Position numbers and translations under genes: made by a program. From positions 1 to 54,683 of the forward strand of contig JBBQRF010000004.1 of the NCBI GenBank assembly GCA_038215155.1: a DNA stretch of 54,683 nt. Reading direction: 5' to 3'. Source of the DNA: Minisyncoccia bacterium (lineage in GTDB: Bacteria > Patescibacteriota > Minisyncoccia > Phycocordibacterales > CAJBRS01). Every line of letters starts with the position of its first letter. Positions within the stretch are counted from its first letter, which is position 1. Of this stretch, positions 5,879-41,857 are shown one piece after another. The notes below the pieces were generated by a model. The model made no database searches. It saw only the letters and a program-made list of their open reading frames with translations, and had not been told where the DNA came from.

Positions 5879-6763
5879 GAGGGTTTTCATTATTTCCTCT
5901 ACATCGAAAATTTGGTCAGTGTCGTATGGATGTTCCGCCAAGGTGCCCCAGATATTGTATTTATCTAAATAGGCATCTGGATTGTGGCGGAATTTTTCTT
6001 CTAAAGCGGGCAAAATATTATGGTGCATGGGGTAGCCAAAAACTTTAGGAGAATTAACTATCCAGACCACGGTAGACGAAAGGGCGAGGGCCGCCGCAGC
6101 ATGCTGCGGCGCAGAATCAATCAGCAATCTCTTATTAGAGAATTGGAGAGCACAAAGGAATTCCCTGAGAGTCTCAAATGGAGGGCGAATAGCTCCCTCT
6201 AAGCCATACTGATTTTCACGACGAATATGGAGCACTTCATAACCCTCCGATTTCATTCTATTAACGATTTCCTGAGCCGTGCCTAGTGGTAAATCCCTGG
6301 CCCAAGAAATAGGATAGGACTGATTAATATAGCCTCCACTAGTTTGAATAATGAAGACAGGTTTATCATTGATATTCAATTTAGATTTAACTCTTTCTCG
6401 TTCTTCATCGGTAAAGAATAACTCTGGCATTTCTCCATCATATTTTACGCCGCAGAGCTCACACCATATTTCAATTAGGTGCTTACGGCGAAAGATGAAA
6501 TCCTCGGCTTGGTAAGGATCTTGTAGAAAGAGAAGATTCTTTCCATCTTTTAAGTAGGTTTCTCGAAAGTCTGGAGTTTTCTCAAGGTCTATTACTTTTG
6601 TAACGTGGGGATTATTTGACCAAGCCTCTTTATGAGGTGAGCTGATCAGTATTTCGTGATCTGGATATTTTGCGGCGAGAAGTCGAACCACGGCACTGGC
6701 AGTGATGTTCTTGCCGACTCCACCAGCAATATTAAATATTAATTTCGGTTTTAATTTGCTCAT
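5870..6763 (-). CDS. Heptosyltransferase (GT9)-like glycosyltransferase, paralog 1
   Basis: N-terminal IAGGVGKNI...YPDHEILI and C-terminal LLIDSAPQHAAAALALSSTVVW resemble GT9 motifs. It shares FI(F/Y)RRKHLI(E/D)IWCEL with the neighbouring gene. Confidence 0.5.
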   Translation of the reverse strand: MSKLKPKLIFNIAGGVGKNITASAVVRLLAAKYPDHEILISSPHKEAWSNNPHVTKVIDLEKTPDFRETYLKDGKNLLFLQDPYQAEDFIFRRKHLIEIWCELCGVKYDGEMPELFFTDEERERVKSKLNINDKPVFIIQTSGGYINQSYPISWARDLPLGTAQEIVNRMKSEGYEVLHIRRENQYGLEGAIRPPFETLREFLCALQFSNKRLLIDSAPQHAAAALALSSTVVWIVNSPKVFGYPMHHNILPALEEKFRHNPDAYLDKYNIWGTLAEHPYDTDQIFDVEEIMKTLLD

Positions 6764-7554
6764 GGCAGTAAATTTTGAATAATGTCTGCGGCGCTAGTAG
6801 AGGGTAGATGTTCAAGTGTGCTGTAGCCCCACGCAGTCCAATCTTCTGGAGCGGAGATTATGGTAGCCGCGGCGCCTTGCGCCGCGGCAGCTTGCATTGC
6901 AAAAGAGTTTAAAAATAAATTTTCGGCTGATAAATTCAGAACGCACATCATTTGGCGCAGCGGCAAATTGAGCCATTCAATACCACCAAGCGGCTCTTCA
7001 TCAGCCCTTTTTAGATGGATAGGATGAAAGCCTTCTTTTTGCATCGCTGTCACTACGGCCATCACCGTGGCAAAGGGAAGGGTGGAGATTTTAGGAGCAA
7101 AACCCCAAGCGTCAAAAGGGGGTTGGTTTATCAGTGCGCGGGTTTCAAAAAGGAACAAGGGCTTTCCTCTATTAGTCATTTTTCCTGTTGCTTCGATTTC
7201 TCTAGCAGTAAAGAAAAGTTCTGGCTTTTTAATCTCAGCCGTCACATTAGATAGTTCGCACCAAATATCAATTAAGTGCTTTCGTCGATAAATAAAGTCC
7301 TCGGTCAAAAACGGATCAAGACGGAAGATTTCAGTATCTTTTTTATCCACGAAGTCATCAAAAAAATATTGAGTGTTACCAAGTTTGTAGACTCGGTAGA
7401 CGGCAGGATTGTGAAGCCATACTTCGGGAAAGAGGGTAGTCACTATAATTTTTCGTTCAGGATGAGATTTAGCCAGATTGGCTACCACAGCAGTAGCCAC
7501 TAAATCCTTGCTTGGATCACCCACCACTTCAAAAATTAGGTATTTTTCTGACAT
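6760..7554 (-). CDS. Heptosyltransferase (GT9)-like glycosyltransferase, paralog 2
   Basis: Clear paralog of 5870-6763 (FIYRRKHLIDIWCEL, ELFFT). A 4-nt overlap with paralog 1 suggests co-translation. Confidence 0.5.
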   Translation of the reverse strand: MSEKYLIFEVVGDPSKDLVATAVVANLAKSHPERKIIVTTLFPEVWLHNPAVYRVYKLGNTQYFFDDFVDKKDTEIFRLDPFLTEDFIYRRKHLIDIWCELSNVTAEIKKPELFFTAREIEATGKMTNRGKPLFLFETRALINQPPFDAWGFAPKISTLPFATVMAVVTAMQKEGFHPIHLKRADEEPLGGIEWLNLPLRQMMCVLNLSAENLFLNSFAMQAAAAQGAAATIISAPEDWTAWGYSTLEHLPSTSAADIIQNLLP

Positions 7555-7590: not shown

Positions 7591-8661
7591 ATGAAAACTA
7601 TACGAGTAGCCATTAATGGAGCAGGCAGAATTGGCAGAGCTTTTTATAAAGTAGCTTCTAAACGACCAGAAATTGAGATAGTTGCGCTCAATGATCTTGG
7701 TGATATAGAGAACATTGCTTATCTTTTAAAATACGACAGTGTCTATGGCCGTAGTGGTTTGAATATTGAGATAAAGAAGAACTTAGAGGTTGAGCTTCTA
7801 AGTGAAGATTCAGCACTTAGAAGCTCAACCTCTAAGTTGGTAATACAGGGAAAGGAAGTGAAATTTCTCAGTCAGAAAGATCCAGCACAACTACCATGGA
7901 AAGATTTAGATATTGATGTGGTGGTGGAGTCAACCGGTTTTTTCACTAGCTTTGAAAAATCAAAAGCCCACTTAGATGCCGGCGCTAAAAGAGTAGTAAT
8001 CAGTGCGCCGGTGAAAGAAGATGCCTCAGCCGGCGCGCCGACAGTATTAATGGGAATAAATGAAGAAGCTCTGAAAAATTCTAAAGTTAGCTCAAATGCT
8101 TCCTGCACTACTAATTCAGCAAGTCCACTCTTGGCTATTTTAGATGAAGCAATTGGTATTGAAAAAGCTATTCTTACTACTGTTCACGGATATACTGCCA
8201 GCCAGTCAATTGTTGATGGTCCAAATAAGAAGGATTGGAAGGAGGGCAGAGCAGCGGCTCAGAATATTGTACCGACTTCCACTGGCTCGGCCATCGCTAC
8301 CGCTAAGGCACTCACTCAATTTGAAGGGAAGTTTGACGGCATTTCCATGCGCGTGCCAGTACCAGCCGGATCTATTGCCGACATTACCTTTATTGCTAAG
8401 CGCCCAACCACAGTAGAAGAAGTTAATTCGGCCCTAGAAAAAGCGGCCAATGATCCACGTTGGCAAAAAGTTTTTGCGGTGATTAAGGATCAAATTGTAT
8501 CTAGCGATATTCTCGGGGACTCCCATGCCGCCATTGCCGATCTGGGATTGACTCGAGTAGTGGATGGTAACTTAGTGAAAGTGCTGTCTTGGTATGACAA
8601 TGAAATGGGATACACCCATTCATTAGTAGAACATGTAATTGAAGCGGGTAAGTATTTATGA
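7591..8661 (+). CDS. gap: Glyceraldehyde-3-phosphate dehydrogenase, type I
   Basis: INGAGRIGR, SNASCTTNS and WYDNEMGY motifs. The start is placed at MKTIRV (7591) by alignment to the family N-terminus; the tracker start at 7573 lies in the promoter. Confidence 0.93.
   Translation: MKTIRVAINGAGRIGRAFYKVASKRPEIEIVALNDLGDIENIAYLLKYDSVYGRSGLNIEIKKNLEVELLSEDSALRSSTSKLVIQGKEVKFLSQKDPAQLPWKDLDIDVVVESTGFFTSFEKSKAHLDAGAKRVVISAPVKEDASAGAPTVLMGINEEALKNSKVSSNASCTTNSASPLLAILDEAIGIEKAILTTVHGYTASQSIVDGPNKKDWKEGRAAAQNIVPTSTGSAIATAKALTQFEGKFDGISMRVPVPAGSIADITFIAKRPTTVEEVNSALEKAANDPRWQKVFAVIKDQIVSSDILGDSHAAIADLGLTRVVDGNLVKVLSWYDNEMGYTHSLVEHVIEAGKYL
7780..7838. repeat. Perfect 25-bp inverted repeat with a 9-nt loop, inside the gap CDS
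   Basis: aacttagaggttgagcttctaagtg-aagattcag-cacttagaagctcaacctctaagtt. It encodes the extra peptide LEVELLSEDSALRSSTSK. Confidence 0.9.
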
Positions 8662-22510: not shown

Positions 22511-22583
22511 GCCGGAGTAGCTCAGTCGGTAGAGCAATAGTTTTGTAAACTATAGGTCGTCGGTTCAAGCCCGACCTCCGGCT
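22511..22583 (+). tRNA. tRNA-Thr (anticodon UGU), no encoded CCA
   Basis: Hand-folded cloverleaf: acceptor GCCGGAG/CTCCGGC, D arm GCTC-AGTCGGTA-GAGC, anticodon arm ATAGT-TTTGTAA-ACTAT, T arm GTCGG-TTCAAGC-CCGAC. Confidence 0.9.
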
Positions 22584-31310: not shown

Positions 31311-31970
31311 ATGAAATGGTATAAAGCGAAAGAAGCGCAGTTTTCAATATTCTTCCTACTCATTTTTCTAGTGACTTTTACTGGGCTTTATTTATTCGGC
31401 CTCATTCCTACTGAGCTAAAGGAAGAAGGCGGTACCAACATACTTAATCAACTTTCTCAAAACTCTATTGAAAATATTACTGGTAACAATTCCAATAACA
31501 TAGTCGCACCCACCCTGAAAGGAGAAGAGCCTCTGCGCATTCAATCAGAAAAAATTGGTCTGGATTTTAAAATCGTTAATCCAAACAGTACCAGCAATAC
31601 TATTTTAGACAGCGCCCTGACCGAAGGCGCTGTCCACTATCCCGGATCCGGTCTTCCTGGTATTGGCAACATGTTTATATTCGGCCATTCCACCGGACTT
31701 AAAGTAGTGAACAATAAGGCCTATGAAGTTTTTAATAATCTTCACAATTTAACCTCTGGCGATCAAATAAAAATTGTCACCAAGGATCATGTTTATTTTT
31801 ATACCGTCAACTCCGTTAAATTAGAGAAAGATACAAGTGCCTATGTCAGCTTCTCAACTAAAGAGAATATGCTCACTCTCTCAACTTGCAATAGCTTCGG
31901 CGCCAAGGAAGATAGGTACGTGGTGGTGGCTACTTACTCTGGAAATTCTTCTATAAAAGCATCCTCTTAA
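31311..31970 (+). CDS. Sortase-family transpeptidase
   Basis: N-terminal TM segment, IFGHS (catalytic His), LTLSTC (TLxTC Cys) and EDRYVV (Arg). Confidence 0.8.
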   Translation: MKWYKAKEAQFSIFFLLIFLVTFTGLYLFGLIPTELKEEGGTNILNQLSQNSIENITGNNSNNIVAPTLKGEEPLRIQSEKIGLDFKIVNPNSTSNTILDSALTEGAVHYPGSGLPGIGNMFIFGHSTGLKVVNNKAYEVFNNLHNLTSGDQIKIVTKDHVYFYTVNSVKLEKDTSAYVSFSTKENMLTLSTCNSFGAKEDRYVVVATYSGNSSIKASS

Positions 31971-31987
31971 GATTTCTCTCAAAAACT

Positions 31988-32016
31988 TTGACTTATCACA
32001 TTAAATGTGGTAATAC
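31988..32016 (+). promoter_or_regulatory. Sigma70-type promoter, cassette 1
   Basis: TTGACT-17 nt-TAATAC with TGg immediately upstream of the -10 box. Confidence 0.6.
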
Positions 32017-32061
32017 TCGGGTAGAAATAGATTTTCGACAACAAAAAACAAAGGAGAAAAA

Positions 32062-33774
32062 TTGAATCAAGTTACTCGATTTCCCGCACCCTTAACAGGG
32101 AAGGGAGCAGAAAAAGCAAAAGAATTGAACCAGAGGGTTCGCCCTCGGACAAATGACTGGGACGGTAAGCGGAATCCTCAAGACAACGGTCTCCTCTTCG
32201 GAGATTCTTTACGTGTTGTTGGACCACTCGATGGTTTTAAAGGGCGCGGTTTGGAGGGCAAATTTGAAGTCGGGTTTTTAATCTGGCTCGGCCAAGTTTT
32301 TGGTAATGTCTCTCGAAAAACAGGCATCGGTAATTTCTTAACCAAAGATATTACAAACATTCACGGTGAAGTAACTTCAGTGGAGGGTAGCGGAAACGGT
32401 TTCCTTACTCCTGTCGATGTCACTTATTGGGGCGATAAAGAACTAATCAACCTACTCCTTAATGGTTATTCGGCTGAAGACTTCCAAACTTTCGCCGAGA
32501 TTCCTGTAGAGGAGTGGAATAAATTCATCATCGCTAAAGCTGGTAGTTTTTGGAACCTATATCTTTTGGCTGAGAAAGCCTTCAAGGATCCTAAACGAGG
32601 CGGCTACAACGAAGATGTTAAAGCCTTATACGATACAGCAAAAAAAGAACTGGAGCGCACTTGGAAAATAGCCCGTCAACTGAAACTGGTTTCAAATCTG
32701 GATCAAGCGACGACAGCAAGTTTTGAATGCCCGCCGGAACTCGAGCATAATTTCTACGAGAAATCCAAGGAAATTGCCGAGGAATGGAAAAAAAATGGTC
32801 TTACAAACTTCATTTCTGGTCCGGTAGAGGTATTGAAATATCCGAATGGCAACGTTCGAAAAATTCAAGCCAAGTATGCTGATTTGGACTTTCGTTCGGA
32901 CGAGGAAAAGAATTTTGAGTTGCCACCCGAACCAATAATTCGGTTACGCACTCCGAAGGAATTCTGGGATGAACTCTGCCTGCCAATGAGTCAGAGTGAA
33001 CATCGCCGACGATTAGGTGAAAATCGGAAAATCGAGAGAAAAAATCTTCGCCTAGCAGCAGAAGGTAAGCCACTCCACCCACTTCTTCCGATTAAACGAT
33101 TTCGGCGCGTGCCGGAAAAGCCGATTTGGAGAGGGGAGGAACTGTGGATGGTGCCGATTGTTCCTATGGAGGGGCAGGAAGAAAGGCTACTCTCGATGCC
33201 TAAGGTAAAGCACGAGACTGATGAAGAATATGACAGCCGAATGTATCGACGCAAATGCATTGTTAAGCGTCGGTATCTTTGGAAAGAGGGCTTCTATCTA
33301 TCAGTTCCAATCTATGCCAAAACCGGGGAGATCATTCCTCTGGTAACGCCACCTCGTGAATCAACTCCAAAATTTACCCCGCAAGAGGTGATTGAGTTGA
33401 TATCGAAGAACGACTTGAAGAATCGAAAGGACATTGAAACGTTCTTCGAAAATCAAATCCCTCTTGAGCCAGTCCTCAGTGAGAAAGCTAAGAAAGAGCT
33501 CGAAGCAGAAATGAAACCTTTGGTTGAAAGACCGAACAAAATTTCTCCAGTTGTTTCGACTGTTTCGCCAAAAGTAGTTAAACCCTCGGCATTAAAAGCT
33601 TTGAAGCCGAAAGTGGTAAAACTCGAGACACACCAAGAAAAGTTCGAGTCGCCCCAACCAGATTCGCCCACAAGGATTACTCCTGAGGGAAATATGGCAG
33701 AGGATGAGACTCGGAGAAAATCGGGATGGTGGTCTAAATTTCAGGATATTTACGGCCCATCTGACCCTCGTTAG
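32062..33774 (+). CDS. Hypothetical 570-aa soluble protein with K/P/V-rich tail
   Basis: TTG start 7 nt after aaaggag. No TM segment, signal peptide or known motif recognised. Confidence 0.6.
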   Translation: MNQVTRFPAPLTGKGAEKAKELNQRVRPRTNDWDGKRNPQDNGLLFGDSLRVVGPLDGFKGRGLEGKFEVGFLIWLGQVFGNVSRKTGIGNFLTKDITNIHGEVTSVEGSGNGFLTPVDVTYWGDKELINLLLNGYSAEDFQTFAEIPVEEWNKFIIAKAGSFWNLYLLAEKAFKDPKRGGYNEDVKALYDTAKKELERTWKIARQLKLVSNLDQATTASFECPPELEHNFYEKSKEIAEEWKKNGLTNFISGPVEVLKYPNGNVRKIQAKYADLDFRSDEEKNFELPPEPIIRLRTPKEFWDELCLPMSQSEHRRRLGENRKIERKNLRLAAEGKPLHPLLPIKRFRRVPEKPIWRGEELWMVPIVPMEGQEERLLSMPKVKHETDEEYDSRMYRRKCIVKRRYLWKEGFYLSVPIYAKTGEIIPLVTPPRESTPKFTPQEVIELISKNDLKNRKDIETFFENQIPLEPVLSEKAKKELEAEMKPLVERPNKISPVVSTVSPKVVKPSALKALKPKVVKLETHQEKFESPQPDSPTRITPEGNMAEDETRRKSGWWSKFQDIYGPSDPR

Positions 33775-33783
33775 TAAATACTT

Positions 33784-33813
33784 AGCGTTGCGCCCCCGCG
33801 CAACGCTTTTTTA
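33784..33813 (+). terminator. Rho-independent terminator, cassette 1
   Basis: agcgttgcgc-cccc-gcgcaacgct followed by tttttt. Confidence 0.8.
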
Positions 33814-33819
33814 TTTATA

Positions 33820-33848
33820 TTGACACAGTTTTATATTTATGCTAAAAG
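33820..33848 (+). promoter_or_regulatory. Sigma70-type promoter, cassette 2
   Basis: TTGACA-17 nt-TAAAAG with TGc extended -10. Confidence 0.55.
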
Positions 33849-33870
33849 CAGGGGTAGAAGTAACTTAAAA

Positions 33871-35400
33871 ATGGAAACAATTACCGAAAAATCAGAAAGA
33901 TTCGATCAACTACTAAGCACTTCAACCACTTCCAACGGAACCAAAATTCCCAAAAAAGGTTGGTTGCAGAACCGCAAAGAAAGAAAGATGACCGCAGAAG
34001 AGAAACGTCTTCGCGAGGAGAGAATGATTGTGGATTTTGCGCTCGATCCGGGCACCGGAAACACTATCATAATTCCCTTAAATCACGACGGTTCACTCGA
34101 TCTGGGTAACATGTTCGATGAGCCCTCTGTGATTATTTTGAAATCTAATCGTCAGGGGGACGAGTCGCGCTACGAGCGTATCGCGGCGATTGGGAATATG
34201 GCTAAGCCACTCATCAACCAAATCTCCGATGATTCATGGACGAGCGGCTTCAGAACCCTTCAACCAATCGTCGACGGCTTGATCCAACATGACGTGGAGA
34301 CGGCTGCTATGTGGAAAATGTGTCTCGATAAGGTTTGTGAAAAGATGGGCCTTAATCCGAAAGCCAAGCGCAACCTAATCATTACAGTTCCTCTGGGGTT
34401 AACTCCTCTTCAGGAGAAGACAGTGTCTGATGTAGCCATGATGGCTGGAGCGAACGAGGTTGAAATCGTCAGCCAAGTTTTCTGCGCCGTCTTAGGAGGA
34501 GGATTGTATGATCCCAACACTATCGAACCGACCTTCGGTATCGATATCGGACACGGCACGTCGCAGCTTCTTTTGTTTACCGGATCCGGTACTCTTAAAG
34601 TTGAGGCGGTTCAAAATGCAGGGGGTGGTTATTACACCGAGGCTCTACAAACCTACCTGCTAAAGACATATGGGTTTCAACTTGATCCACTCCGGGCGGA
34701 AAAGGTAAAAATTCAAATCGGAGCCGCAATGTTAAAGGAAGGAGAGGAAGATATTGGAATGACGGTCCCGGCCATCGACAAAAAAACCGGAAAAGGTGGA
34801 AACATCTTCATACGTCGATCCGATACCGTCGAAGCCTTCCGCTTTCTGAATGAAGAATTGGTTCTGAACATTCGAGAAGTTTGCAATAAAGCCCCAAACG
34901 GCCTGGTTGCTGATTTTTCGGACGAGGAGAAACCCTGTTCATTCTTTTTGGGAGGAGGAGGCACCTTGCTCCATAATCTTGACGAGTATCTTCGTCTCGA
35001 GCTGAATTATCGGGTACTGCGAGTGCACGATCCACTTCACGCTATTGCAATCGGAGCGGCTAAGATAATGGCCAACTCTAACCTGCGACCCTTCCATGCT
35101 CGGAAGCCATTTGAATGGCCGACGGAAACGGACCCTTGCCCGTTTTACGTACTTCGGAAATCTGCTGGATTTAAGCGAGTGAAAACCCGCATGGAAAGAA
35201 GGGGGAGTCGCTGGGCTTTCTGGCGTCGAGATCCGATTCCAGTTCGAATTGCCACGAATCCGACCGACATAGCAAACGTTATCTCGAAACACGGGAAAGC
35301 CTATCTCGAAAGGATTGGAGAATATACCCGGGGTAATTTTTGGGAAATCGTTTTTCCCAAGCAAGAGGTAGCCGCGGGAATAGTACAAAACCGGACTTAG
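33871..35400 (+). CDS. Divergent MreB-like actin-fold ATPase with N- and C-terminal extensions
   Basis: Alignable by eye to MreB: LDPGTGNT (phosphate 1), PIVDGLI, ITVPLGLTPLQEKT, IDIGHGTSQ (phosphate 2), LGGGGTLLHNLDEYL (adenosine), VHDPLHAIAIGAAK. The tracker's TTG start is the -35 box, so the ATG at 33871 is used. Confidence 0.75.
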   Translation: METITEKSERFDQLLSTSTTSNGTKIPKKGWLQNRKERKMTAEEKRLREERMIVDFALDPGTGNTIIIPLNHDGSLDLGNMFDEPSVIILKSNRQGDESRYERIAAIGNMAKPLINQISDDSWTSGFRTLQPIVDGLIQHDVETAAMWKMCLDKVCEKMGLNPKAKRNLIITVPLGLTPLQEKTVSDVAMMAGANEVEIVSQVFCAVLGGGLYDPNTIEPTFGIDIGHGTSQLLLFTGSGTLKVEAVQNAGGGYYTEALQTYLLKTYGFQLDPLRAEKVKIQIGAAMLKEGEEDIGMTVPAIDKKTGKGGNIFIRRSDTVEAFRFLNEELVLNIREVCNKAPNGLVADFSDEEKPCSFFLGGGGTLLHNLDEYLRLELNYRVLRVHDPLHAIAIGAAKIMANSNLRPFHARKPFEWPTETDPCPFYVLRKSAGFKRVKTRMERRGSRWAFWRRDPIPVRIATNPTDIANVISKHGKAYLERIGEYTRGNFWEIVFPKQEVAAGIVQNRT

Positions 35401-35412
35401 CTCTTTCACACC

Positions 35413-35441
35413 CGCCGCAGATGCAAATCTGCGGCGTTTTT
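35413..35441 (+). terminator. Rho-independent terminator, cassette 2
   Basis: cgccgcagat-gcaa-atctgcggcg followed by ttttt. Confidence 0.85.
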
Positions 35442-35476
35442 ATTTGCCCGGCCTAAGCTGCTATGGAGGGACATCC

Positions 35477-35505
35477 TTGACTAAGACCAATAAATGTGAT
35501 AATGA
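35477..35505 (+). promoter_or_regulatory. Sigma70-type promoter, cassette 3
   Basis: TTGACT-17 nt-TAATGA with TGa extended -10. Confidence 0.55.
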
Positions 35506-35549
35506 GAAGGAAGATTTCAACCCAAAAACACACACAAAGTTCTTAAAAA

Positions 35550-36422
35550 ATGAAAATAATACTGACGATTCTTATTCTGTTTATCCTTGGAACAATCATT
35601 GGTCTCTCGGTGGCGATTTATCGTCTTGGCTGGCCAAAGTTTGTGGAAGAAGTGATTCACTTCGCAATCATCCTTCGTCGCTTAAAGTGGCGATTACTTC
35701 TTCGGCATCTCGGAATGGTTGCTCTTGTAATCTGCACCCTCGGATTTATTCTGAACTATCTTCCTAGCACTGTCTGCTTCGGCTGGCGCTGCTTGAAAGA
35801 AAATGCGGATTACTTTCTGGGCTACAATCATGTGGTCACCGAACTTCACAAGGAGCGCGATAATCATTACGCGCTCAGCAAGGAGCTGGATCGGAAAGAA
35901 AATGAGAAGCAAGCTTTGCTAAAACAAAGTGAAGAGTGGCAAAAAGCTTTTCAAACAGCTGAACTTTCGGCGGATAAATCAACGATTCGGCAAACCGAAC
36001 TGGAAGATAATCTTCGGAGCTCACAGCACGTTGCTGACAATCTGCGGGGGGAAAAGACCAAACTTCAGCAATCTCTCGTCCAAAAAGACAAAGACATTGC
36101 TGAGGTAAATCGAAAACTCGTGGAAAAGGAGGGAGAAATAGAAAGACTGGCCAAAAAAGACGCAGAAAAAAGGCAGTCTGAACTTGCTCAAAACGGCGAG
36201 AGTCATTGGTGGTCAGATTGGTTTAACAAAGAAACCAAAAATGAATCTGCAAAGGTTAGTCCTTCATCACCACCAACCGTGACGGCAATACCTCCAAGCC
36301 TTCCTTCGGATCCTGTCTCGAATATTGACGAAACAGAGTTAATTCAAGCCTCTGTGAAGAATGCCCGTTTGAAACTGGCCCTCATCGAGAAGACACTTAG
36401 GGAAAAAGGTTACAGCGATTGA
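35550..36422 (+). CDS. Membrane protein (2-3 TM) with a long coiled coil
   Basis: The hydrophobic N-terminal 90 aa are followed by about 130 aa of heptad-rich E/K/Q sequence and an S/P-rich segment. Confidence 0.6.
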   Translation: MKIILTILILFILGTIIGLSVAIYRLGWPKFVEEVIHFAIILRRLKWRLLLRHLGMVALVICTLGFILNYLPSTVCFGWRCLKENADYFLGYNHVVTELHKERDNHYALSKELDRKENEKQALLKQSEEWQKAFQTAELSADKSTIRQTELEDNLRSSQHVADNLRGEKTKLQQSLVQKDKDIAEVNRKLVEKEGEIERLAKKDAEKRQSELAQNGESHWWSDWFNKETKNESAKVSPSSPPTVTAIPPSLPSDPVSNIDETELIQASVKNARLKLALIEKTLREKGYSD

Positions 36423-36446
36423 GTGCCCTCGGCTCAATCGTTTTTT
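36416..36446 (+). terminator. Rho-independent terminator, cassette 3
   Basis: cgattgag...ctcaatcg followed by tttttt. The stop codon lies inside the stem. Confidence 0.75.
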
Positions 36447-36460
36447 ATTTTATCGTTACT

Positions 36461-36489
36461 TGACTTTTGAATAAAAGTATGCTAAATAT
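36461..36489 (+). promoter_or_regulatory. Sigma70-type promoter, cassette 4
   Basis: TTGACT-17 nt-TAAATA with TGc extended -10. Confidence 0.6.
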
Positions 36490-36558
36490 TGAATAGGTTA
36501 GATAGTTCTGGGCATAATGTCTGGAGCGCCTAAAAACAAATTCCTCAGAAAGGGGATC

Positions 36559-37149
36559 ATGAAGAACAAAATAAAAATCTATTTATTGGTTATTGCGGTT
36601 ACTTTCGTCGGCGTCAATTTGACCTTCGGTCAATCGCCGTCGTCACCTCCGGGGTCAATCAGCCCTAGCAGGGGTATAGCCAGCGCGTCTCCTAAAGGAA
36701 GCGCTGCCTCAAAGTCTACACCCCGTCCTGCGGTCTCACCGAATCCCTCCACAGCCGGGAACGGTAGTCAAATAAATGCGGATGCCAATACCTGGGCTGA
36801 AATCGTCGACACCTTGGGTGAGAAAACCAAGGCGTCCTTGAAGGAGAAGGACGACAAAATCGCCGACCTCGATCTTCGAAATAGTTCGATTATCAAGGAG
36901 AAACAAGATCTCGAAACCGAGAAGCTTAATCTCGAAACAAAGGTTCGGGCTCTGGAACAAGGACAAAATGGCGTAGATAAGCGAGTTAAAGCGATCGAAA
37001 AAGAAAGGGATGAGGCTAAAGCAGCTTTCAAGACCATCACCGACGCCTTACGCAAGGTCAATAACGACAAAGAGTTAGCAGTCGGAGTTGACCCCACGAA
37101 AAAAGGTTCGGCATTACCTCAGGTCGTGGACACACGGCCGTCCAACTAG
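36559..37149 (+). CDS. Secreted S/P-rich coiled-coil protein
   Basis: Signal-peptide-like MKNKIKIYLLVIAVTFVGVNLTFG, an S/P-rich linker and a coiled coil (DLETEKLNLETKVRALEQ). The ATG at 36559 follows aagggga. Confidence 0.6.
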   Translation: MKNKIKIYLLVIAVTFVGVNLTFGQSPSSPPGSISPSRGIASASPKGSAASKSTPRPAVSPNPSTAGNGSQINADANTWAEIVDTLGEKTKASLKEKDDKIADLDLRNSSIIKEKQDLETEKLNLETKVRALEQGQNGVDKRVKAIEKERDEAKAAFKTITDALRKVNNDKELAVGVDPTKKGSALPQVVDTRPSN

Positions 37150-37163
37150 GAGGTCAGTTAAAT

Positions 37164-37200
37164 AACAGGCGTTATGGAGTAATCCTAGCGCCTGTTTTCT
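37164..37200 (+). terminator. Terminator, cassette 4
   Basis: aacaggcg...cgcctgtt (8 bp, 17-nt loop) followed by ttttct. Confidence 0.6.
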
Positions 37201-37206
37201 TTATAC

Positions 37207-37235
37207 TTGACAATTATCTTAAGGTGTGCTAATAT
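37207..37235 (+). promoter_or_regulatory. Sigma70-type promoter, cassette 5
   Basis: TTGACA-17 nt-TAATAT with TGc extended -10. Confidence 0.6.
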
Positions 37236-37302
37236 ACTGATAAATGGTTCTACCCAGAACCCCATTCACACAGCAGTAAACCTCAACGAAAGGAATCAGA
37301 AA

Positions 37303-38034
37303 GTGAAAAAGTTCATTAACATGTTAGTTCTCATCAGTTTGTTTGGAATGGCGGCAGCTCACGGCTTTGGCCAAGAGTTAACCCCTGACCAAGCGGTGGC
37401 CCAGCTCGATGCGCTGGCAAAAAAAGCAGCTAAGGCTGATGCCTCCGAAAAGGAGAATCAAGCCTGGAAAGCAAAGGTAGGAGCAGTCCTCGGCACTCAA
37501 TCGAAGGCCGCATCTGCTTCTTCCCCATCAGCAGCCCCAGCGTCCGTAACGACTGCCTCAAATTCGGATCTGCGTGCGCAGATCGAAGCTCTCAATAAGA
37601 AAAACGAAGAGCTTGAATTAAAGGTGAAGGAAGCGCCTGTAAAAACAGCGGGAAATGCTCCAAGTGATTCGCCCAGTGTCGATCGGCCAGAAATGTCGGA
37701 AGGCAATAGTGGTGCAATACCAGCCTCACTGACGGACACCCGAGCCCTCAGCAATCGTCAGAAAGCGGAGAAGCTCGAAGGAATGTTGAAGAGCCAAGGG
37801 CTCCTCAGCAATGGTCGGCTAGCGACCAGCGATTCAGTGCTCCGATTCTGTGTAGCAGTGCCGGGCGTCAATGCCTGCATTCCTCACGATCGGATGAATC
37901 ACGTCTTCCGGTTCGCCGACATGTCGGCCGATCAAGGAATTCCAGACAGCGTGGTAGGGGAGTATATCCACCGCCACCATCTGCAGGTGCACTTGCGGTC
38001 CGAAAGTCCTGCCCCTCGAATGGCGCGGAACTAA
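37303..38034 (+). CDS. Secreted A/S/P-rich protein with a short coiled coil and a Cys/His-containing C-terminal domain
   Basis: GTG start after gaaaggaa. Signal-peptide-like KKFINMLVLISLFGMAAAHG, coiled coil LRAQIEALNKKNEELELKV, C-terminus FCVAVPGVNACIPHDRMNH. Confidence 0.55.
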   Translation: MKKFINMLVLISLFGMAAAHGFGQELTPDQAVAQLDALAKKAAKADASEKENQAWKAKVGAVLGTQSKAASASSPSAAPASVTTASNSDLRAQIEALNKKNEELELKVKEAPVKTAGNAPSDSPSVDRPEMSEGNSGAIPASLTDTRALSNRQKAEKLEGMLKSQGLLSNGRLATSDSVLRFCVAVPGVNACIPHDRMNHVFRFADMSADQGIPDSVVGEYIHRHHLQVHLRSESPAPRMARN

Positions 38035-38044
38035 CAAAAACCCG

Positions 38045-38079
38045 GTGTGAATATTAGGTTCAATCCCTTTTATTCACAC
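38045..38079 (+). terminator. Weak terminator hairpin, cassette 5
   Basis: gtgtgaata...tattcacac (9 bp, 17-nt loop). The downstream T-run is poor (tctttgtattt). Confidence 0.4.
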
Positions 38080-38118
38080 TCTTTGTATTTAGTAGAACGT
38101 TGATATTAAGAAGCATAC

Positions 38119-38147
38119 TTGACTTTTCATAAAGGTTAGTGTATAAT
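38119..38147 (+). promoter_or_regulatory. Sigma70-type promoter, cassette 6
   Basis: TTGACT-17 nt-TATAAT. Confidence 0.65.
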
Positions 38148-38177
38148 GCTGATATTAATTATTTAAGAAAAAATATT

Positions 38178-39602
38178 ATGAAAAATTTATTCAATTTAAT
38201 CCTTCCAAAGATTGTGCCAGCAATTGTAGTTTTAATCTTGGTCGGAGGAGTTTTCGGAGTTAGTTTCGCCTTTCCTTCAAAGGCAAATGCTCAATACTTC
38301 GACGGCGGCCTAGATTACGGCGGCTTCGATTATTCAGGCGGTACTTATGGAAGTGACGGCCTAGATTATGGCGGTTTCGATTATGGCAGCGGCGGTTACG
38401 GTGATAGCTTTAGTAACTATGGCTACGGAGACAATTCTGGTTATGGAAACTACGGTTATGGAGATAACTCAGGTTACGGATCTTATGACCCTTGTAGCTA
38501 CGGTTGTTACGACAACAACTCTAGTTACGGAGACTATGGAAATTCAGGTTGTGATTACGGTTGCAACGATAATAACTCAAGTTATGGAAATTATGGATGT
38601 GATAGCTGTAACTCTTATGGTAACTATGGCGGTAATCAAGGATCTTATGGTTGCAACAGTTGTTACACCCCTCCTCCTTATCACCCAACCACCACTTACC
38701 ATCCTCCAGTAACTAATTCTACTCCAGCTACTATTCACAACACTAATACTAATAACAATAATAATTTCTCTAATTCTAATTCTAGCTCCAGTGCTACTGC
38801 TATTAATAACAACACTGTTATTATTAATACTCCAGCCGGTAACAACAATACCACCGAAGCTCCAAACTTAACTGCTTATTGTGTCGCTAATCCATCAAGT
38901 CCTATTGTAGGAAATGTTGTAAATTGGCAAGCAAATGCTAGTGGTGGAAATGGAAATTATTCTTACTCTTGGAATGGTGATGTCTACGGAAGTGGTTCAA
39001 GCGTTTCAAATACTTACTACAACAGTGGTACTCGAAATGCTAACGTAACTGTGACTTCCGGTGGGCGACAAGTCACCGCCAGCTGTTCAGTAAATGTTCA
39101 GCCAAATGGTGCTCAAGCGGCTTTCACTACGGTCTATCAGCAACCAACTGGTACTCCTAGCGCAGGCGTCTTCTTAAGTCAGATTCCAGCAACTGGCATC
39201 AGTATGAATCTTAAGATGGCTCTATTCGGACTAGGATTAGCAATGTGGAGCGCCTTCGGAGCCTACATGATTCTTCAGAAGAAAAAGTTGGCAGTTCTAG
39301 CCGTTGCAGGCATCAGCGCTTCAGAGATGGAAGCTGAGGAAATCACTGCTCCAGAAATGGAAGAGGAAGTGATGGCTCCAACTGAAGTAACTTCAGAGGA
39401 GTTTGAAAACAGTCTTTCTTTCATGGCTCGCGAAAACAATGTTCTGATCTCCCGAGATGGCTTAAATACTATTCTCGCTCGAGTTGGAACTGATAAAGTG
39501 GCTGGCGAAAATATGCTTAACACTCTTATCGGCAAAGTTTCTCGAAATGATGGAAACTACGCTACTCTCAACTCTGAGAAAATTGAAAAACTATTAGCTT
39601 AA
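38178..39602 (+). CDS. Surface protein: signal peptide, G/Y/D/N-rich repeats, PKD-like domain, IPATG+TM+KKK segment, acidic cytoplasmic tail
   Basis: MKNLFNLILPKIVPAIVVLILVGG...ANAQ; GLDYGGFDY and NYGYGDNSGYG repeats; WQANASGGNGNYSYSWNGD (PKD-like); SQIPATG, hydrophobic stretch, QKKK. Confidence 0.65.
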   Translation: MKNLFNLILPKIVPAIVVLILVGGVFGVSFAFPSKANAQYFDGGLDYGGFDYSGGTYGSDGLDYGGFDYGSGGYGDSFSNYGYGDNSGYGNYGYGDNSGYGSYDPCSYGCYDNNSSYGDYGNSGCDYGCNDNNSSYGNYGCDSCNSYGNYGGNQGSYGCNSCYTPPPYHPTTTYHPPVTNSTPATIHNTNTNNNNNFSNSNSSSSATAINNNTVIINTPAGNNNTTEAPNLTAYCVANPSSPIVGNVVNWQANASGGNGNYSYSWNGDVYGSGSSVSNTYYNSGTRNANVTVTSGGRQVTASCSVNVQPNGAQAAFTTVYQQPTGTPSAGVFLSQIPATGISMNLKMALFGLGLAMWSAFGAYMILQKKKLAVLAVAGISASEMEAEEITAPEMEEEVMAPTEVTSEEFENSLSFMARENNVLISRDGLNTILARVGTDKVAGENMLNTLIGKVSRNDGNYATLNSEKIEKLLA

Positions 39603-39653: not shown

Positions 39654-41414
39654 CTATTTTCTTTCTATTATTTCTTTATTAAATTTCTCTAAAACTTCAT
39701 CAATACTCAGGGCGCCCAAATTACCATTATCACGGCTCTCGAGAGTAACTGTTCCTGATTCTATCTCTTTATCACCAATGACCAAGAAGTAGGGAATTTT
39801 CTCAATTTTTGCCTGGCGGATTTTTTTCCCCAAGCTTTCATTACTACCATCGAGCTCCACTCGAAAATTTTCTCCTTGTAATTTCTCGTAAACTATTTTT
39901 GCGTAACTTTGATGAGTTTCGCCAATGGGCAAGACTTTTACTTGAAGAGGGGAAAGCCAGAGAGGAAAGGCTCCTGCGAAGTGCTCTATAATTATAGACA
40001 TGAATCTCTCTAGAGAACCGGCTACAGCTCGATGAATCATGACGGGTATTTGTTTAGAACCATCATTGGCAGTGTATTCAAGCCCAAAACGAGAAGGCTG
40101 AACAAAATCAATTTGAGCCGTAGCAAGTTGCCATTCTCGATTCAAAGCATCTTTAAATTTAAAATCTAATTTAGGACCGTAAAATGCAGCTTCACCTTCC
40201 ATTCTTCTAGCGTTGAGACCGAATTCATCTGAAATTTCCTGAAGATATTGTTCTGCCTTATTCCAATTTTCTTCTTCTCCTAAATATTTCTCAGGAGTCT
40301 TGGGGTCGCGGACTGATAAAGAAACCCAAAAACTTTCTCCTTTCTTCCACATTCCTAAGGCACTATAAAACTCTTCAATAATCCGCACGATATTTCCAAC
40401 CTCGTCTTTAATTTGCTCTGGAGTGGTAAAAATGTGAGCATCATCAATAGTGATAGATCTGACTCGCGACAAACCTAAAAGCTGGCCTGGTTTCTCATCG
40501 CGATATTGCATAGTGAGTTCTGTGTATCGAACTGGTAAATCCCTGTAACTTCGAGGTTTGGCTGCGTAAATTTGAGTATGGTGAGGACAATTCATTGGCT
40601 TCATCACAAATTCTTGATTACTCTGAGCTCCATGGACGTAGAAAAATTCGTCTTTAAATTTCTCGGCATGACCACTAGTTTCGTAGAGAGTCAGTTTAGC
40701 AATATGGGGAATGGAGACTTTTTGGTAGCCATATTTTTTTGAAAGTTGCCAGAGAAAATCAGAAATGTTTTCTCGCATAGCTTGGCCCCGAGGGGTAAAG
40801 AGGGGAAGGCCCGGACCTACTAAATCAGAAAAAGTAAAAAGATCTAATTCGCGTCCCAATTTTCGATGGTCACGTTTCTCTGCTTCCTCTTGCTGTTTAA
40901 GATAATTATCGAGGCCATCTTTATTTTCGAAAGCTAGACCATAAATTCTAGTGAGCATCTTATTTTTTTCATCACCACGCCAATAGGCTCCGGCGAGGTG
41001 GGAGAGATGGAAACCTTGTGGATCGATAAGCTCAAAATTTTCCACGTGTCCTCCTCGACAAAGGTCGGTGAAATTTCCGGAAGTATAGAGTGTAATTTTC
41101 TCACCCTTCTTTTCAATTTCATCAATTAACTCGAGCTTATAGGGGTTATCAGTAAAAAGAGCCCTCGCTTCGCTCGGGCTTACTTCTTTGTGAGAGAAAT
41201 TTTTCCAAGTAGGAAAAATTTCTCTCATCTTTTTCTCAATCTTTATCAAGTCTTCTTCAGCAACGGGCGAAACAAAATCAAAATCATAATAGAAGCCATT
41301 ATCTACGGCGGGGCCGATGGTATTTAAAGCATCCGGATATAATTCCAAGGCAGCAGCTGCCAACAGGTGAGCTAGTGAGTGTCGAATCTTAGCTAAATGG
41401 TCTACTTCAGTCAT
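39654..41414 (-). CDS. thrS: Threonyl-tRNA synthetase (no TGS domain)
   Basis: HSLAHLL, HRKLGRELDLF and MNCPHH motifs, plus a C-terminal anticodon-binding domain. Confidence 0.9.
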   Translation of the reverse strand: MTEVDHLAKIRHSLAHLLAAAALELYPDALNTIGPAVDNGFYYDFDFVSPVAEEDLIKIEKKMREIFPTWKNFSHKEVSPSEARALFTDNPYKLELIDEIEKKGEKITLYTSGNFTDLCRGGHVENFELIDPQGFHLSHLAGAYWRGDEKNKMLTRIYGLAFENKDGLDNYLKQQEEAEKRDHRKLGRELDLFTFSDLVGPGLPLFTPRGQAMRENISDFLWQLSKKYGYQKVSIPHIAKLTLYETSGHAEKFKDEFFYVHGAQSNQEFVMKPMNCPHHTQIYAAKPRSYRDLPVRYTELTMQYRDEKPGQLLGLSRVRSITIDDAHIFTTPEQIKDEVGNIVRIIEEFYSALGMWKKGESFWVSLSVRDPKTPEKYLGEEENWNKAEQYLQEISDEFGLNARRMEGEAAFYGPKLDFKFKDALNREWQLATAQIDFVQPSRFGLEYTANDGSKQIPVMIHRAVAGSLERFMSIIIEHFAGAFPLWLSPLQVKVLPIGETHQSYAKIVYEKLQGENFRVELDGSNESLGKKIRQAKIEKIPYFLVIGDKEIESGTVTLESRDNGNLGALSIDEVLEKFNKEIIERK

Positions 41415-41436: not shown

Positions 41437-41467
41437 CCAAAATAAAATCGAACACTTAAGTGTTCGA
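41437..41467 (-). terminator. Terminator of the 41456-41857 orphan gene
   Basis: Perfect 20-nt palindrome tcgaacactt|aagtgttcga with the stop codon at its apex. It is followed on the minus strand by ttttatttt. Confidence 0.7.
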
Positions 41468-41857
41468 CGTAAGCACTCCCTTCGAGGATAACCGAGTTTT
41501 GATGAAGCCCATTATCTCATCGAGAATCAGGCTATTTTCTGGGGAGAGGAAAAGGTCTCTTCGCCAGCATTCCATGCAATAGCTGTCTAACTCGTTTTCA
41601 AGTTTAGGGGATCTAACCTGAATGAACCCATAAAACCGAAAACCGTTCAAAGTAAGAGATATTTGCGAAGAATGAGCGGGTGGGCTATCCCAATTAAACC
41701 GCATATTGCTCAAGGCAGGAATTCGTTCAGCCATTTCGTCTTTTAGATGATAAAAAAGCTCTTGCCAAATTTCGTCATCTTGAGGAAGGGGAATGTTCTC
41801 ATCAAACATTCGAACAAGGATGGCTCTAAAGAGCTCGGGAAAAGAGTTTAGTAACAT
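41456..41857 (-). CDS. Hypothetical protein (orphan)
   Basis: 133-aa ORF with its own promoter, an agagg RBS and its own terminator. No recognisable motif. Confidence 0.5.
   Translation of the reverse strand: MLLNSFPELFRAILVRMFDENIPLPQDDEIWQELFYHLKDEMAERIPALSNMRFNWDSPPAHSSQISLTLNGFRFYGFIQVRSPKLENELDSYCMECWRRDLFLSPENSLILDEIMGFIKTRLSSKGVLTSNT

Follow-up and report, generated by a model that had tools for sequence, protein, structure and literature searches.

The stretch of DNA analysed here (the window) comprises positions 1 to 54,683 of the forward strand of contig JBBQRF010000004.1 from the Minisyncoccia bacterium assembly GCA_038215155.1, and the gene under study (33871..35400, + strand) encodes an MreB-like protein of 509 amino acids (aa) plus stop, here termed P0001. 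P0001 is almost certainly the product of a real gene and, although very divergent, a genuine actin-fold protein of the MreB branch, and it is the third MreB paralogue of a genome that also carries two canonical mreB genes. Both acids of the catalytic network are replaced by amides, the invariant residues of the nucleotide site are kept, and basic tails extend the core at both ends. Taken as a whole, the evidence leaves evenly balanced the proposal that P0001 is a slowly hydrolysing, long-lived, membrane-associated scaffold of MreB type for the envelope proteins encoded by the gene cassette in which it lies.

The match to MreB ran along the whole core, as a preliminary description of this DNA had stated. 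Specifically, the Pfam model PF06723 (MreB_Mbl) gave 138.3 bits (E 3e-40; gathering cut-off 27) over residues 55–402 and profile positions 3–321 of 327, the only other Pfam matches being FtsA at 27 bits and HSP70 at 23 bits, and all PDB sequence matches obtained with HMMER were to MreBs. The NCBIfam MreB models NF010539 and TIGR00904 scored below their cut-offs (141.8 vs 293 and 140.7 vs 365.75 bits, respectively), as did the MamK model NF040964 (27.3 bits vs 400), and no ParM/Alp family was matched in Pfam at E<=1. An AlphaFold2 (AF2) model built on a 115-row alignment showed a predicted local distance difference test (pLDDT) score >90 for residues 52–415. In a Foldseek search of the PDB with this model, ranks 1–25 were all MreB, with target-normalised template-modelling (TM) scores of 0.83–0.93 (0.86–0.93 to MreB of Thermotoga maritima, Caulobacter crescentus and Geobacillus stearothermophilus), followed by BeeR, MamK, actins and DnaK. 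P0001 is thus of MreB type by both hidden Markov model (HMM) scores and fold comparison, and not of the ParM, MamK, FtsA or crenactin type, the folds with which the preliminary description had proposed to compare it. The MreB-fold core (residues 52–410; 34024..35100, +) is acidic, with an isoelectric point (pI) of 5.1.

The nucleotide site was read from HMMER alignments to PDB MreBs and from a MAFFT alignment of 115 rows, covering P0001, its only specific relative P0002 and 113 other MreB representatives. All nine columns invariant across the 115 MreBs are kept (D59, G61, G108, A111, G227, G229, K280, G362 and G395), as are the nucleotide-binding residues D59, G61, T62, D225, G227, G229, T230, A276, E277, K280 and G362–364. 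The DxGT, DxGxGT, GGG and AExxK ribose-contact motifs of the MreB family are all present, and the adenosine motif LGGGGTLL (residues 360–367; 34948..34971, +) is intact. Among the 39 columns conserved in >=85% of the 113 MreBs, P0001 keeps 28 and P0002 keeps 30, the range in the other MreBs being 32–39. The two motif changes pointed out earlier are both present. In the phosphate-1 motif (residues 59–65; 34045..34065, +) DLGTANT reads DPGTGNT, with D59, G61 and T62 kept and the Leu at position 60 replaced by a Pro found there in none of the 113 other MreBs. In the phosphate-2 motif (residues 225–232; 34543..34566, +) DIGGGTTE reads DIGHGTSQ, where T230, equivalent to T167 of C. crescentus MreB (CcMreB), is kept, Q232 replaces E169, and H228 replaces a Gly, a change again seen in 0/113 other MreBs.

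The change with the clearest functional meaning lies in the connect-1 segment VSQVFCAVLGGG (residues 200–211; 34468..34503, +), where Q202 occupies the place of the catalytic Glu (E140 of CcMreB, in a numbering of chain index + 7 checked on this residue, and E136 of G. stearothermophilus MreB, GsMreB). The alignments agree that the canonical EEP corresponds to S201-Q202-V203, and the acidic EE pair before the Pro is indeed absent, whatever the gapping. In each of three independent alignments Q202 was matched to the catalytic Glu, and Q232 to the final residue of DIGGGTTE, with high posterior confidence; re-gapping therefore does not restore the acidic residues, and their loss withstood profile alignment. 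The catalytic motif E...T-x-[D/E] is accordingly missing from P0001, which carries Q202...T230-S-Q232; the Q/T/Q triple recurs in P0002 (Q...T-H-Q) and in 0/113 of the other representatives.

In the filament state of CcMreB, E140 and T167 hold the attacking water (PMC4051119), and the motif E...T-x-[D/E], formed by E140, T167 and E169, is found in 95.8% of non-Spiroplasma MreBs (PMC9597168). The slow release of inorganic phosphate by Spiroplasma MreB3 has been ascribed to loss of this motif, and actin has Q137 and H161 at its first and last positions (PMC9597168). In GsMreB, the E136A change lowered ATPase activity ~55-fold and left ATP binding, polymerisation and lipid adsorption intact, with polymers persisting under limiting ATP, and the G14E and G160R changes abolished nucleotide binding (bioRxiv 10.64898/2026.07.23.740262). 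Experimental changes to residues of the catalytic motif slow hydrolysis while polymerisation continues (PMC9597168; bioRxiv 10.64898/2026.07.23.740262). By analogy, a strongly reduced ATPase activity is to be expected of P0001 with fair confidence, and the altered ATP hydrolysis suggested in the preliminary description finds good support in Q202 and Q232 at the E140 and E169 positions, with the same residues in the orthologue. ATP binding is likely to be retained, the positions of GsMreB G14 and G160 being occupied by glycines in P0001 (G61 and G227).

The two canonical mreB genes, whose presence elsewhere in the genome the preliminary description had left to be checked, lie ~5 kb apart on contig C1 (14826–15797 and 20161–21135) of the window genome, an assembly of 657 kb and 97% completeness. 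Their products score 454 and 447 bits with the Pfam model and are 48% identical to each other and 24–26% identical to P0001; the second gene is followed by mreC. The same two canonical MreBs are near-universal in genomes sampled from the order, lying close together in most of them, and in a reading that covered 27 related genomes the 25 MreB open reading frames (ORFs) read at those loci all have the canonical DxGGGxxD phosphate-2 motif, the EE before the Pro/Ala position being present in 15/15 ORFs where the pattern caught connect-1. Other actin-fold genes in the window genome encode FtsA, DnaK and two PilM-like ORFs (C1:204834-205451 and C5:46888-47184, of 377 and 350 aa), the latter hinting at type IV pilus-like machinery.

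The search for homologues with HMMER was exhaustive and covered 1.84 billion representatives of ~15 billion proteins. It returned 2594 matches and a single specific relative, P0002, a 487-aa protein with 29–31% identity to P0001, encoded in GCA_017881075.1 (G001), a genome of the same genus as the window genome (G000). A scan of genome contigs with P0001 retrieved only two canonical MreBs, one from Chloroflexota and one a fragment from Patescibacteria. Word-indexed searches with P0001 and with the unk570/unk655 alignment, capped at 8000 candidates, gave back the query alone, and the conclusions drawn here rely on the exhaustive pass. The MreB-like protein was found in 2/61 genomes of the order, G000 and G001, and not in the third congener, G002. 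The locus in G001 has the same order as in the window, namely a CARDB protein gene (-), a sortase gene, a large orphan, the MreB-like gene, three small coiled-coil genes, a gene for a G/Y-rich surface protein, thrS (-) and dnaE (-), with a promoter (TTGACA-17-TAGATA) at the same relative place and an upstream terminator. The two proteins also share an acidic core between basic tails (pI 5.1 with tails of 9.9 and 10.5 in P0001; 5.3 with tails of 10.5 and 8.8 in P0002), and the AF2 model of P0002 shows the core, a ~40-residue disordered linker and short C-terminal helices, as in P0001. In five columns both orthologues depart from the conserved residue: L60, the xMxGRTP Gly (N116 in P0001, Asp in P0002), E181 to Gln, P309 to Gly, and P343. 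The derived residues common to both are Q181, Q202, Q232 and G309.

In a Maximum Likelihood tree rooted on FtsA and PilM of the window genome, P0001 and P0002 formed a pair with 98% support in the Shimodaira–Hasegawa-like approximate likelihood-ratio test (SH-aLRT), on terminal branches of ~1.1 substitutions per site and a stem of 0.54. The pair was nested in the MreB radiation among other divergent representatives and fell outside a 97%-supported, 50-member clade holding both resident MreBs, on branches too long for its exact position to be reliable. This placement lends no support to a recent duplication of a resident mreB. Grouping with ordinary MreB, which would have counted against the preliminary description, was not seen: P0001 sits on a long branch apart from the two resident MreBs, although still nested within MreB. 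P0001 and P0002 represent a new, fast-evolving MreB subfamily, known from these two members only, with a conserved Q...T-x-Q site and basic disordered tails.

Such rapid change could also mark a paralogue that is in decay or no longer polymerises. It would have arisen as an MreB duplicate or been imported, would be under relaxed constraint and in the course of loss, as in the third congener, and would serve at most as a nucleotide-binding adaptor. The orthologues are 29% identical in genomes whose canonical MreBs share 83–94%, 11/39 conserved columns are lost in P0001, the longitudinal-contact Gly among them, the catalytic acids are gone, the tails are unconserved and disordered, and the gene was not found in G002 nor in 58 other genomes of the order. 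Yet each of the two species, diverged to 54–80% identity in housekeeping proteins, has an intact ORF (509 and 487 aa) flanked by promoter and terminator; all invariant nucleotide-site residues are kept, the derived states are common to both orthologues rather than random, the AF2 core is very confident, and frame-0 codon usage matches that of housekeeping genes. On balance we consider decay improbable.

The gene model supports the extensions at both ends. The open frame (33820–35400, +) opens with a TTG at the first base of the TTGACA box of a promoter-like site (33820..33848, +), read straight from the sequence as TTGACA, 17 nt and TGcTAAAAG (extended -10), which a consensus scan missed because its -10 box ends in G. 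The TTG at 33820 was rejected as a start codon as it belongs to this -35 box, which places the start at the first ATG, 33871, and gives 509 aa. An intrinsic terminator of the upstream gene unk570 (33784..33807, +) and the MreB-like gene's own terminator (35413..35436, +), each with a 10-bp stem of 7 GC pairs and a T-run, bracket the gene, which is therefore its own, monocistronic transcription unit. A start at ATG 34024, after GAGGAGAGA, was also rejected; the GAGGAG before it gives no reason to shorten the gene model, as the genome is without Shine-Dalgarno use and the 51 upstream codons show good frame-0 usage. Around 25 confident genes of the window (e.g. 6760-7554(-), 31311, 39654-41414(-) and 47859) have no Shine-Dalgarno motif upstream, and many ATGs lie 6–10 nt past a TATAAT-like box or in an A-rich context, which suggests that mRNAs of this genome commonly have no leader or a very short one.

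The context of ATG 33871 (cttaaaaATG) is A-rich like that of other genes of the genome. Codon-usage log-odds favoured frame 0 in the first 51 codons (-3.90 vs -4.35 and -4.15 in the other frames) and in the last 99 (-4.17 vs -4.40 and -4.39), and frame-0 codon usage of the gene equals that of housekeeping genes. Given this start context and codon usage, the strong terminator past the stop and the similarly tailed orthologue, neither extension is a mis-called end.

The N-terminal extension (residues 1–51; 33871..34023, +) has a pI of 9.9 and is predicted to form short helices of low confidence (pLDDT 53–60; 80 for residues 41–50). As the first core strand starts at residue 52–55 and canonical MreBs have 8–17 residues ahead of theirs, the extension beyond canonical MreB is ~45–50 aa; the tail described earlier is real and basic, and its length, counted from ATG 33871, is shorter than the ~75 aa first proposed. 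It contains a basic KKGW...REER stretch at residues 28–51 and, within it, a PKKGW motif (33949–33963, +) echoed by PKKLKPW before the core of P0002. At the other end the core closes near residue 405–415, leaving a C-terminal extension of ~95–105 aa (residues 411–509; 35101..35397, +; pI 10.5), against the ~110 aa given previously. The Arg/Trp/Phe-rich patch also described then is present as RMERRGSRWAFWRRDPIPVR (residues 440–459; 35188–35247, +), in a disordered linker, and is followed by a predicted amphipathic helix (residues 464–488; 35260–35334, +; pLDDT ~55, hydrophobic moment 0.55); pLDDT fell below 50 for residues 422–461 and 486–509. The exhaustive HMMER pass yielded core matches only and no homologue of either tail. 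Six longer matches that seemingly shared the C-terminal tail (P0083, P0054, P0058, P0139, P0003 and P0009) were set aside, being canonical MreBs with frameshifted, chimeric or duplicated tails.

Whether P0001 would polymerise into antiparallel double protofilaments bound to the membrane, as MreBs do, was judged indirectly from its contact residues. L180 aligns with CcMreB V118, an inter-protofilament contact, and is hydrophobic and compatible; A347 aligns with CcMreB S283, an intra-protofilament contact, and is a compatible small residue. In CcMreB, V118E gives single protofilaments and S283D monomers. Departures were seen at Q181 (34411..34413, +), which replaces the conserved Glu of the TxVE(R)RA helix in both P0001 and P0002, and at N116 (34216..34218, +), aligned with the near-invariant Gly of xMxGRTP and followed by a 5-aa insertion. 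This Gly is the longitudinal contact G56 of GsMreB, where G56R abolishes longitudinal contacts and polymerisation (bioRxiv 10.64898/2026.07.23.740262). Polymerisation with a modified longitudinal contact is plausible, and judged from these residues the chances that P0001 forms polymers stand about level. As to the membrane, the IA loop of P0001 reads M-G-L then KAKR, against GFV in CcMreB, and the best amphipathic N-terminal segment is acidic; the PKKGW motif of the N-terminal tail and the Arg/Trp patch of the C-terminal tail are suggestive of membrane-targeting elements.

The same contact residues bear on a different role, in which P0001 would modulate the resident MreBs by co-assembling with them as a slowly hydrolysing subunit or cap that stabilises or re-targets elongasome filaments. 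In Bacillus subtilis, MreB paralogues are known to assemble together. P0001 has residues compatible with MreB contacts at the lateral interface and at one longitudinal position, its top fold match was the integrative Mbl-MreB model in the PDB, and hydrolysis-poor MreB stabilises polymers (bioRxiv 10.64898/2026.07.23.740262). Set against this are the low identity to the resident MreBs (24–26%), the altered IB contact region, and a sister species that does without the MreB-like protein. There is also no genomic link to mreBCD: no mreC, mreD or other elongasome gene lies beside the MreB-like gene, whose neighbours are orphans, coiled-coil genes, a sortase gene and thrS, and P0001 co-occurs with cassette-specific orphans instead. 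A modulator of the elongasome is therefore unlikely. Given its place in a fast-evolving cassette, in whose slot a sister species has another filament protein, P0001 is probably a specialised scaffold, not the cell-shape MreB.

This scaffold reading draws on the five-gene cassette (32062–38034) that lies between the sortase gene and the gene of a sortase-substrate-like surface protein. Directly upstream of the MreB-like gene, unk570 (32062..33774, +) encodes a 570-aa cytoplasmic orphan without transmembrane segments, its C-terminal ~80 residues forming a Lys/Pro/Glu-rich low-complexity tail. It matched no family in Pfam, PADLOC or PHROGs and gave no usable ESM Atlas match; its sole relative is the 655-aa protein unk655 of G001 (36% identity), and among 201 genomes of the order it was found in two (G000 and G001), plus one marginal match. 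The MreB-like gene and unk570 co-occur only in G000 and G001. A complex prediction for the MreB-like protein (residues 1–509) with unk570 (residues 1–490) scored 0.00, the fold of the partner being uncertain, and weighs neither for nor against an interaction.

Downstream, cc290, cc210 and cc275 (35550..38034, +) each have their own terminator or promoter; cc290 has two transmembrane segments and a coiled coil, and cc210 and cc275 an N-terminal signal or anchor and a coiled coil, P0001 itself having no transmembrane segment. The slot is closed by a G/Y/N-rich surface protein (window 38139–39602; L005:14252-15703 in G001; L042:132-1493 in G002) that is conserved in the three congeners at 43–61% identity and has a second hydrophobic segment near residue 350 with IPATG ahead of it. 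Farther on, a 133-aa ORF (41456-41857(-)) stands between thrS and dnaE in the window, with no gene called there in G001.

The cassette with the MreB-like gene is present in two of three species of one genus and diverges far faster than its flanks. Between G000 and G001, DnaE shares 80% identity, the sortase 61%, ThrRS 54% and the canonical MreBs 94% and 83%, against 36% for unk570/unk655, 29% for the MreB-like proteins and essentially none for the coiled-coil proteins. In G002, whose flanks are closer to those of the window (sortase 74%, surface protein 61% and CARDB protein 62% identity), the slot (L042:132-6418, on C9, a 462-kb contig) instead holds genes for a secreted coiled-coil protein of 227 aa, a bactofilin of 136 aa (PF04519, 59 bits), a 553-aa orphan and a transmembrane coiled-coil protein of 297 aa. 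No bactofilin was found in G000 or in G001, and only 3/31 genomes sampled in the order have one. No homology was detectable between the two cassette types, and a profile–profile comparison of unk570/unk655 with the 553-aa orphan indicated no relationship (probability 0.3%). Both types nevertheless combine a polymer former and a large orphan, the two being cytoplasmic, with coiled-coil proteins that are secreted or lie in the membrane.

Composition and distribution might point to mobile-element cargo. P0001 would then come from the remnant of a plasmid or prophage and, as an actin-like protein comparable to ParM/Alp, would serve in segregation or in manipulating the host. In both GC and GC3 (GC at third codon positions) the cassette (GC 0.45–0.54, GC3 0.43–0.54) exceeds its flanks (GC 0.39–0.43, GC3 0.33–0.40) by 5–10 points, its distribution is patchy, each gene has its own promoter and terminator, and P0001 matches a phage MreB-like PHROG family at 60 bits, the only PHROG match of the cassette. 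This score is far under that of the Pfam MreB model, and the protein is of MreB and not ParM/Alp type. Further, searches of the cassette proteins against Pfam, PADLOC and PHROGs detected no integrase, replication, relaxase, capsid or defence families. No iterons, repeat arrays or flanking direct repeats were present in 31900–38200, and the only tRNA of the window, at 22511, is 9 kb away. A defence island was likewise rejected, the PADLOC JetC matches of the coiled-coil proteins (13–25 bits) being coiled-coil noise.

The same slot and gene order recur in two species with another cassette there in the third, and as the slot is fixed on the chromosome in all three, recent insertion is disfavoured. 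The cassettes of the three congeners are all 5–10 points richer in GC and GC3 than their flanks, whatever their gene content (L005:7894-14097 in G001 and L042:1625-5650 in G002). Cassettes may have been exchanged repeatedly out of a pool with higher GC, or recombination may have biased their composition. An origin as mobile-element cargo is accordingly very improbable.

In the scaffold reading, P0001 would bind ATP and, at the cytoplasmic surface of the membrane, assemble into polymers or oligomers of the MreB type, held there by the basic and aromatic tails together with a partly retained hydrophobic/basic IA loop. Because its ATP hydrolysis would be slow, the assemblies would be long-lived and could serve as a static cytoplasmic scaffold for the envelope proteins of the cassette, outside the mreBCD elongasome; in the sister species G002 a nucleotide-independent bactofilin would fill the same role. 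The specific assignment of P0001 as scaffold for these envelope proteins is tentative. More speculative, and on present evidence unlikely, is the wider suggestion that the sortase-to-thrS slot holds interchangeable cytoskeleton cassettes, each with a cytoplasmic polymer (a hydrolysis-crippled MreB-type actin or a bactofilin), a large orphan and coiled-coil proteins that span the envelope or are secreted. Together these would form a structure at the surface or for attachment that diversifies rapidly, serving for instance in host-cell contact.

Several observations weigh against the scaffold reading. Gln alone at the catalytic-Glu position is not unique, as it occurs in 12/113 representatives, and the 28/39 strongly conserved columns kept by P0001 fall short of the 32–39 found elsewhere. 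H228 lies in the phosphate-2 glycine loop and adjoins the Gly matching GsMreB G160, so that ATP binding is not certain. The longitudinal interface may be altered or lost, the xMxGRTP Gly being Asn in P0001 and Asp in P0002 beside the 5-aa insertion. The tails, basic in both orthologues, are predicted to be mostly disordered and their sequence is not conserved, so that they may or may not form the added binding surfaces suggested in the preliminary description; the extreme divergence of P0001 and P0002 also fits relaxed constraint, and the link of P0001 to the coiled-coil genes consists of co-location and co-occurrence.

P0001 and its cassette were compared with several known systems. Like canonical MreB, P0001 has the four-subdomain fold, the phosphate-1, phosphate-2 and adenosine glycines, and D59, D225, K280, L180 and A347; unlike it, P0001 (24–31% identity) has Q...T-x-Q, a Pro in DxG, a His in the phosphate-2 loop, no GRTP Gly, six small insertions, a ~47-aa basic N-terminal tail, a ~100-aa basic C-terminal tail and a locus away from mreCD. 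Spiroplasma MreB3 (PDB 7e1c/7e1g; PMC9597168) is likewise a natural paralogue that lacks E...T-x-[D/E] and exists beside other MreBs, with slow phosphate release and a specialised non-elongasome role, but it has D...K-x-S/T, no long tails and 19% identity to P0001 in the Foldseek alignment, and it belongs to another lineage, acting in the motility of a wall-less cell. GsMreB E136A (bioRxiv 10.64898/2026.07.23.740262) lacks the same catalytic Glu, although as an engineered single Ala in a canonical MreB, whereas P0001 has Gln and many further changes. Eukaryotic actin shares a Gln at the position of MreB E140 and, as the fourth residue of the phosphate-2 loop, an amino acid other than Gly (D157 in actin, H228 in P0001), but has His161 where P0001 has Q232, with a TM score of ~0.7 and 12–15% identity.

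ParM, Alp and MamK, too, are accessory actin-fold polymers encoded apart from the elongasome, frequently by small gene sets of their own; P0001 does not belong to their HMM families and its locus has no ParR-like adaptor, centromere repeats or magnetosome genes. The bactofilin cassette of G002 resembles that of the window in its slot, its membrane-associated polymer former, its large orphan, its transmembrane or secreted coiled coils and its higher GC, whereas bactofilin itself has a beta-helical fold and polymerises without nucleotide, and the accompanying proteins are without detectable homology.

MreB paralogues that are accessory and have a rewired active site are rare, and those studied have been informative; Spiroplasma MreB3 and MreB5, for instance, drive swimming. 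In P0001 both acids of the catalytic network are amides, kept across deep divergence, which makes the protein a ready test of the role of ATP hydrolysis in MreB polymers. If the cassette proposal were true, a bactofilin could functionally stand in as scaffold for an actin-fold protein and vice versa, and close species would trade them with their entire cassettes. The setting of the gene hints at an envelope architecture specific to this lineage of ultra-small, uncultivated bacteria, a group with a scarcely explored cell biology.

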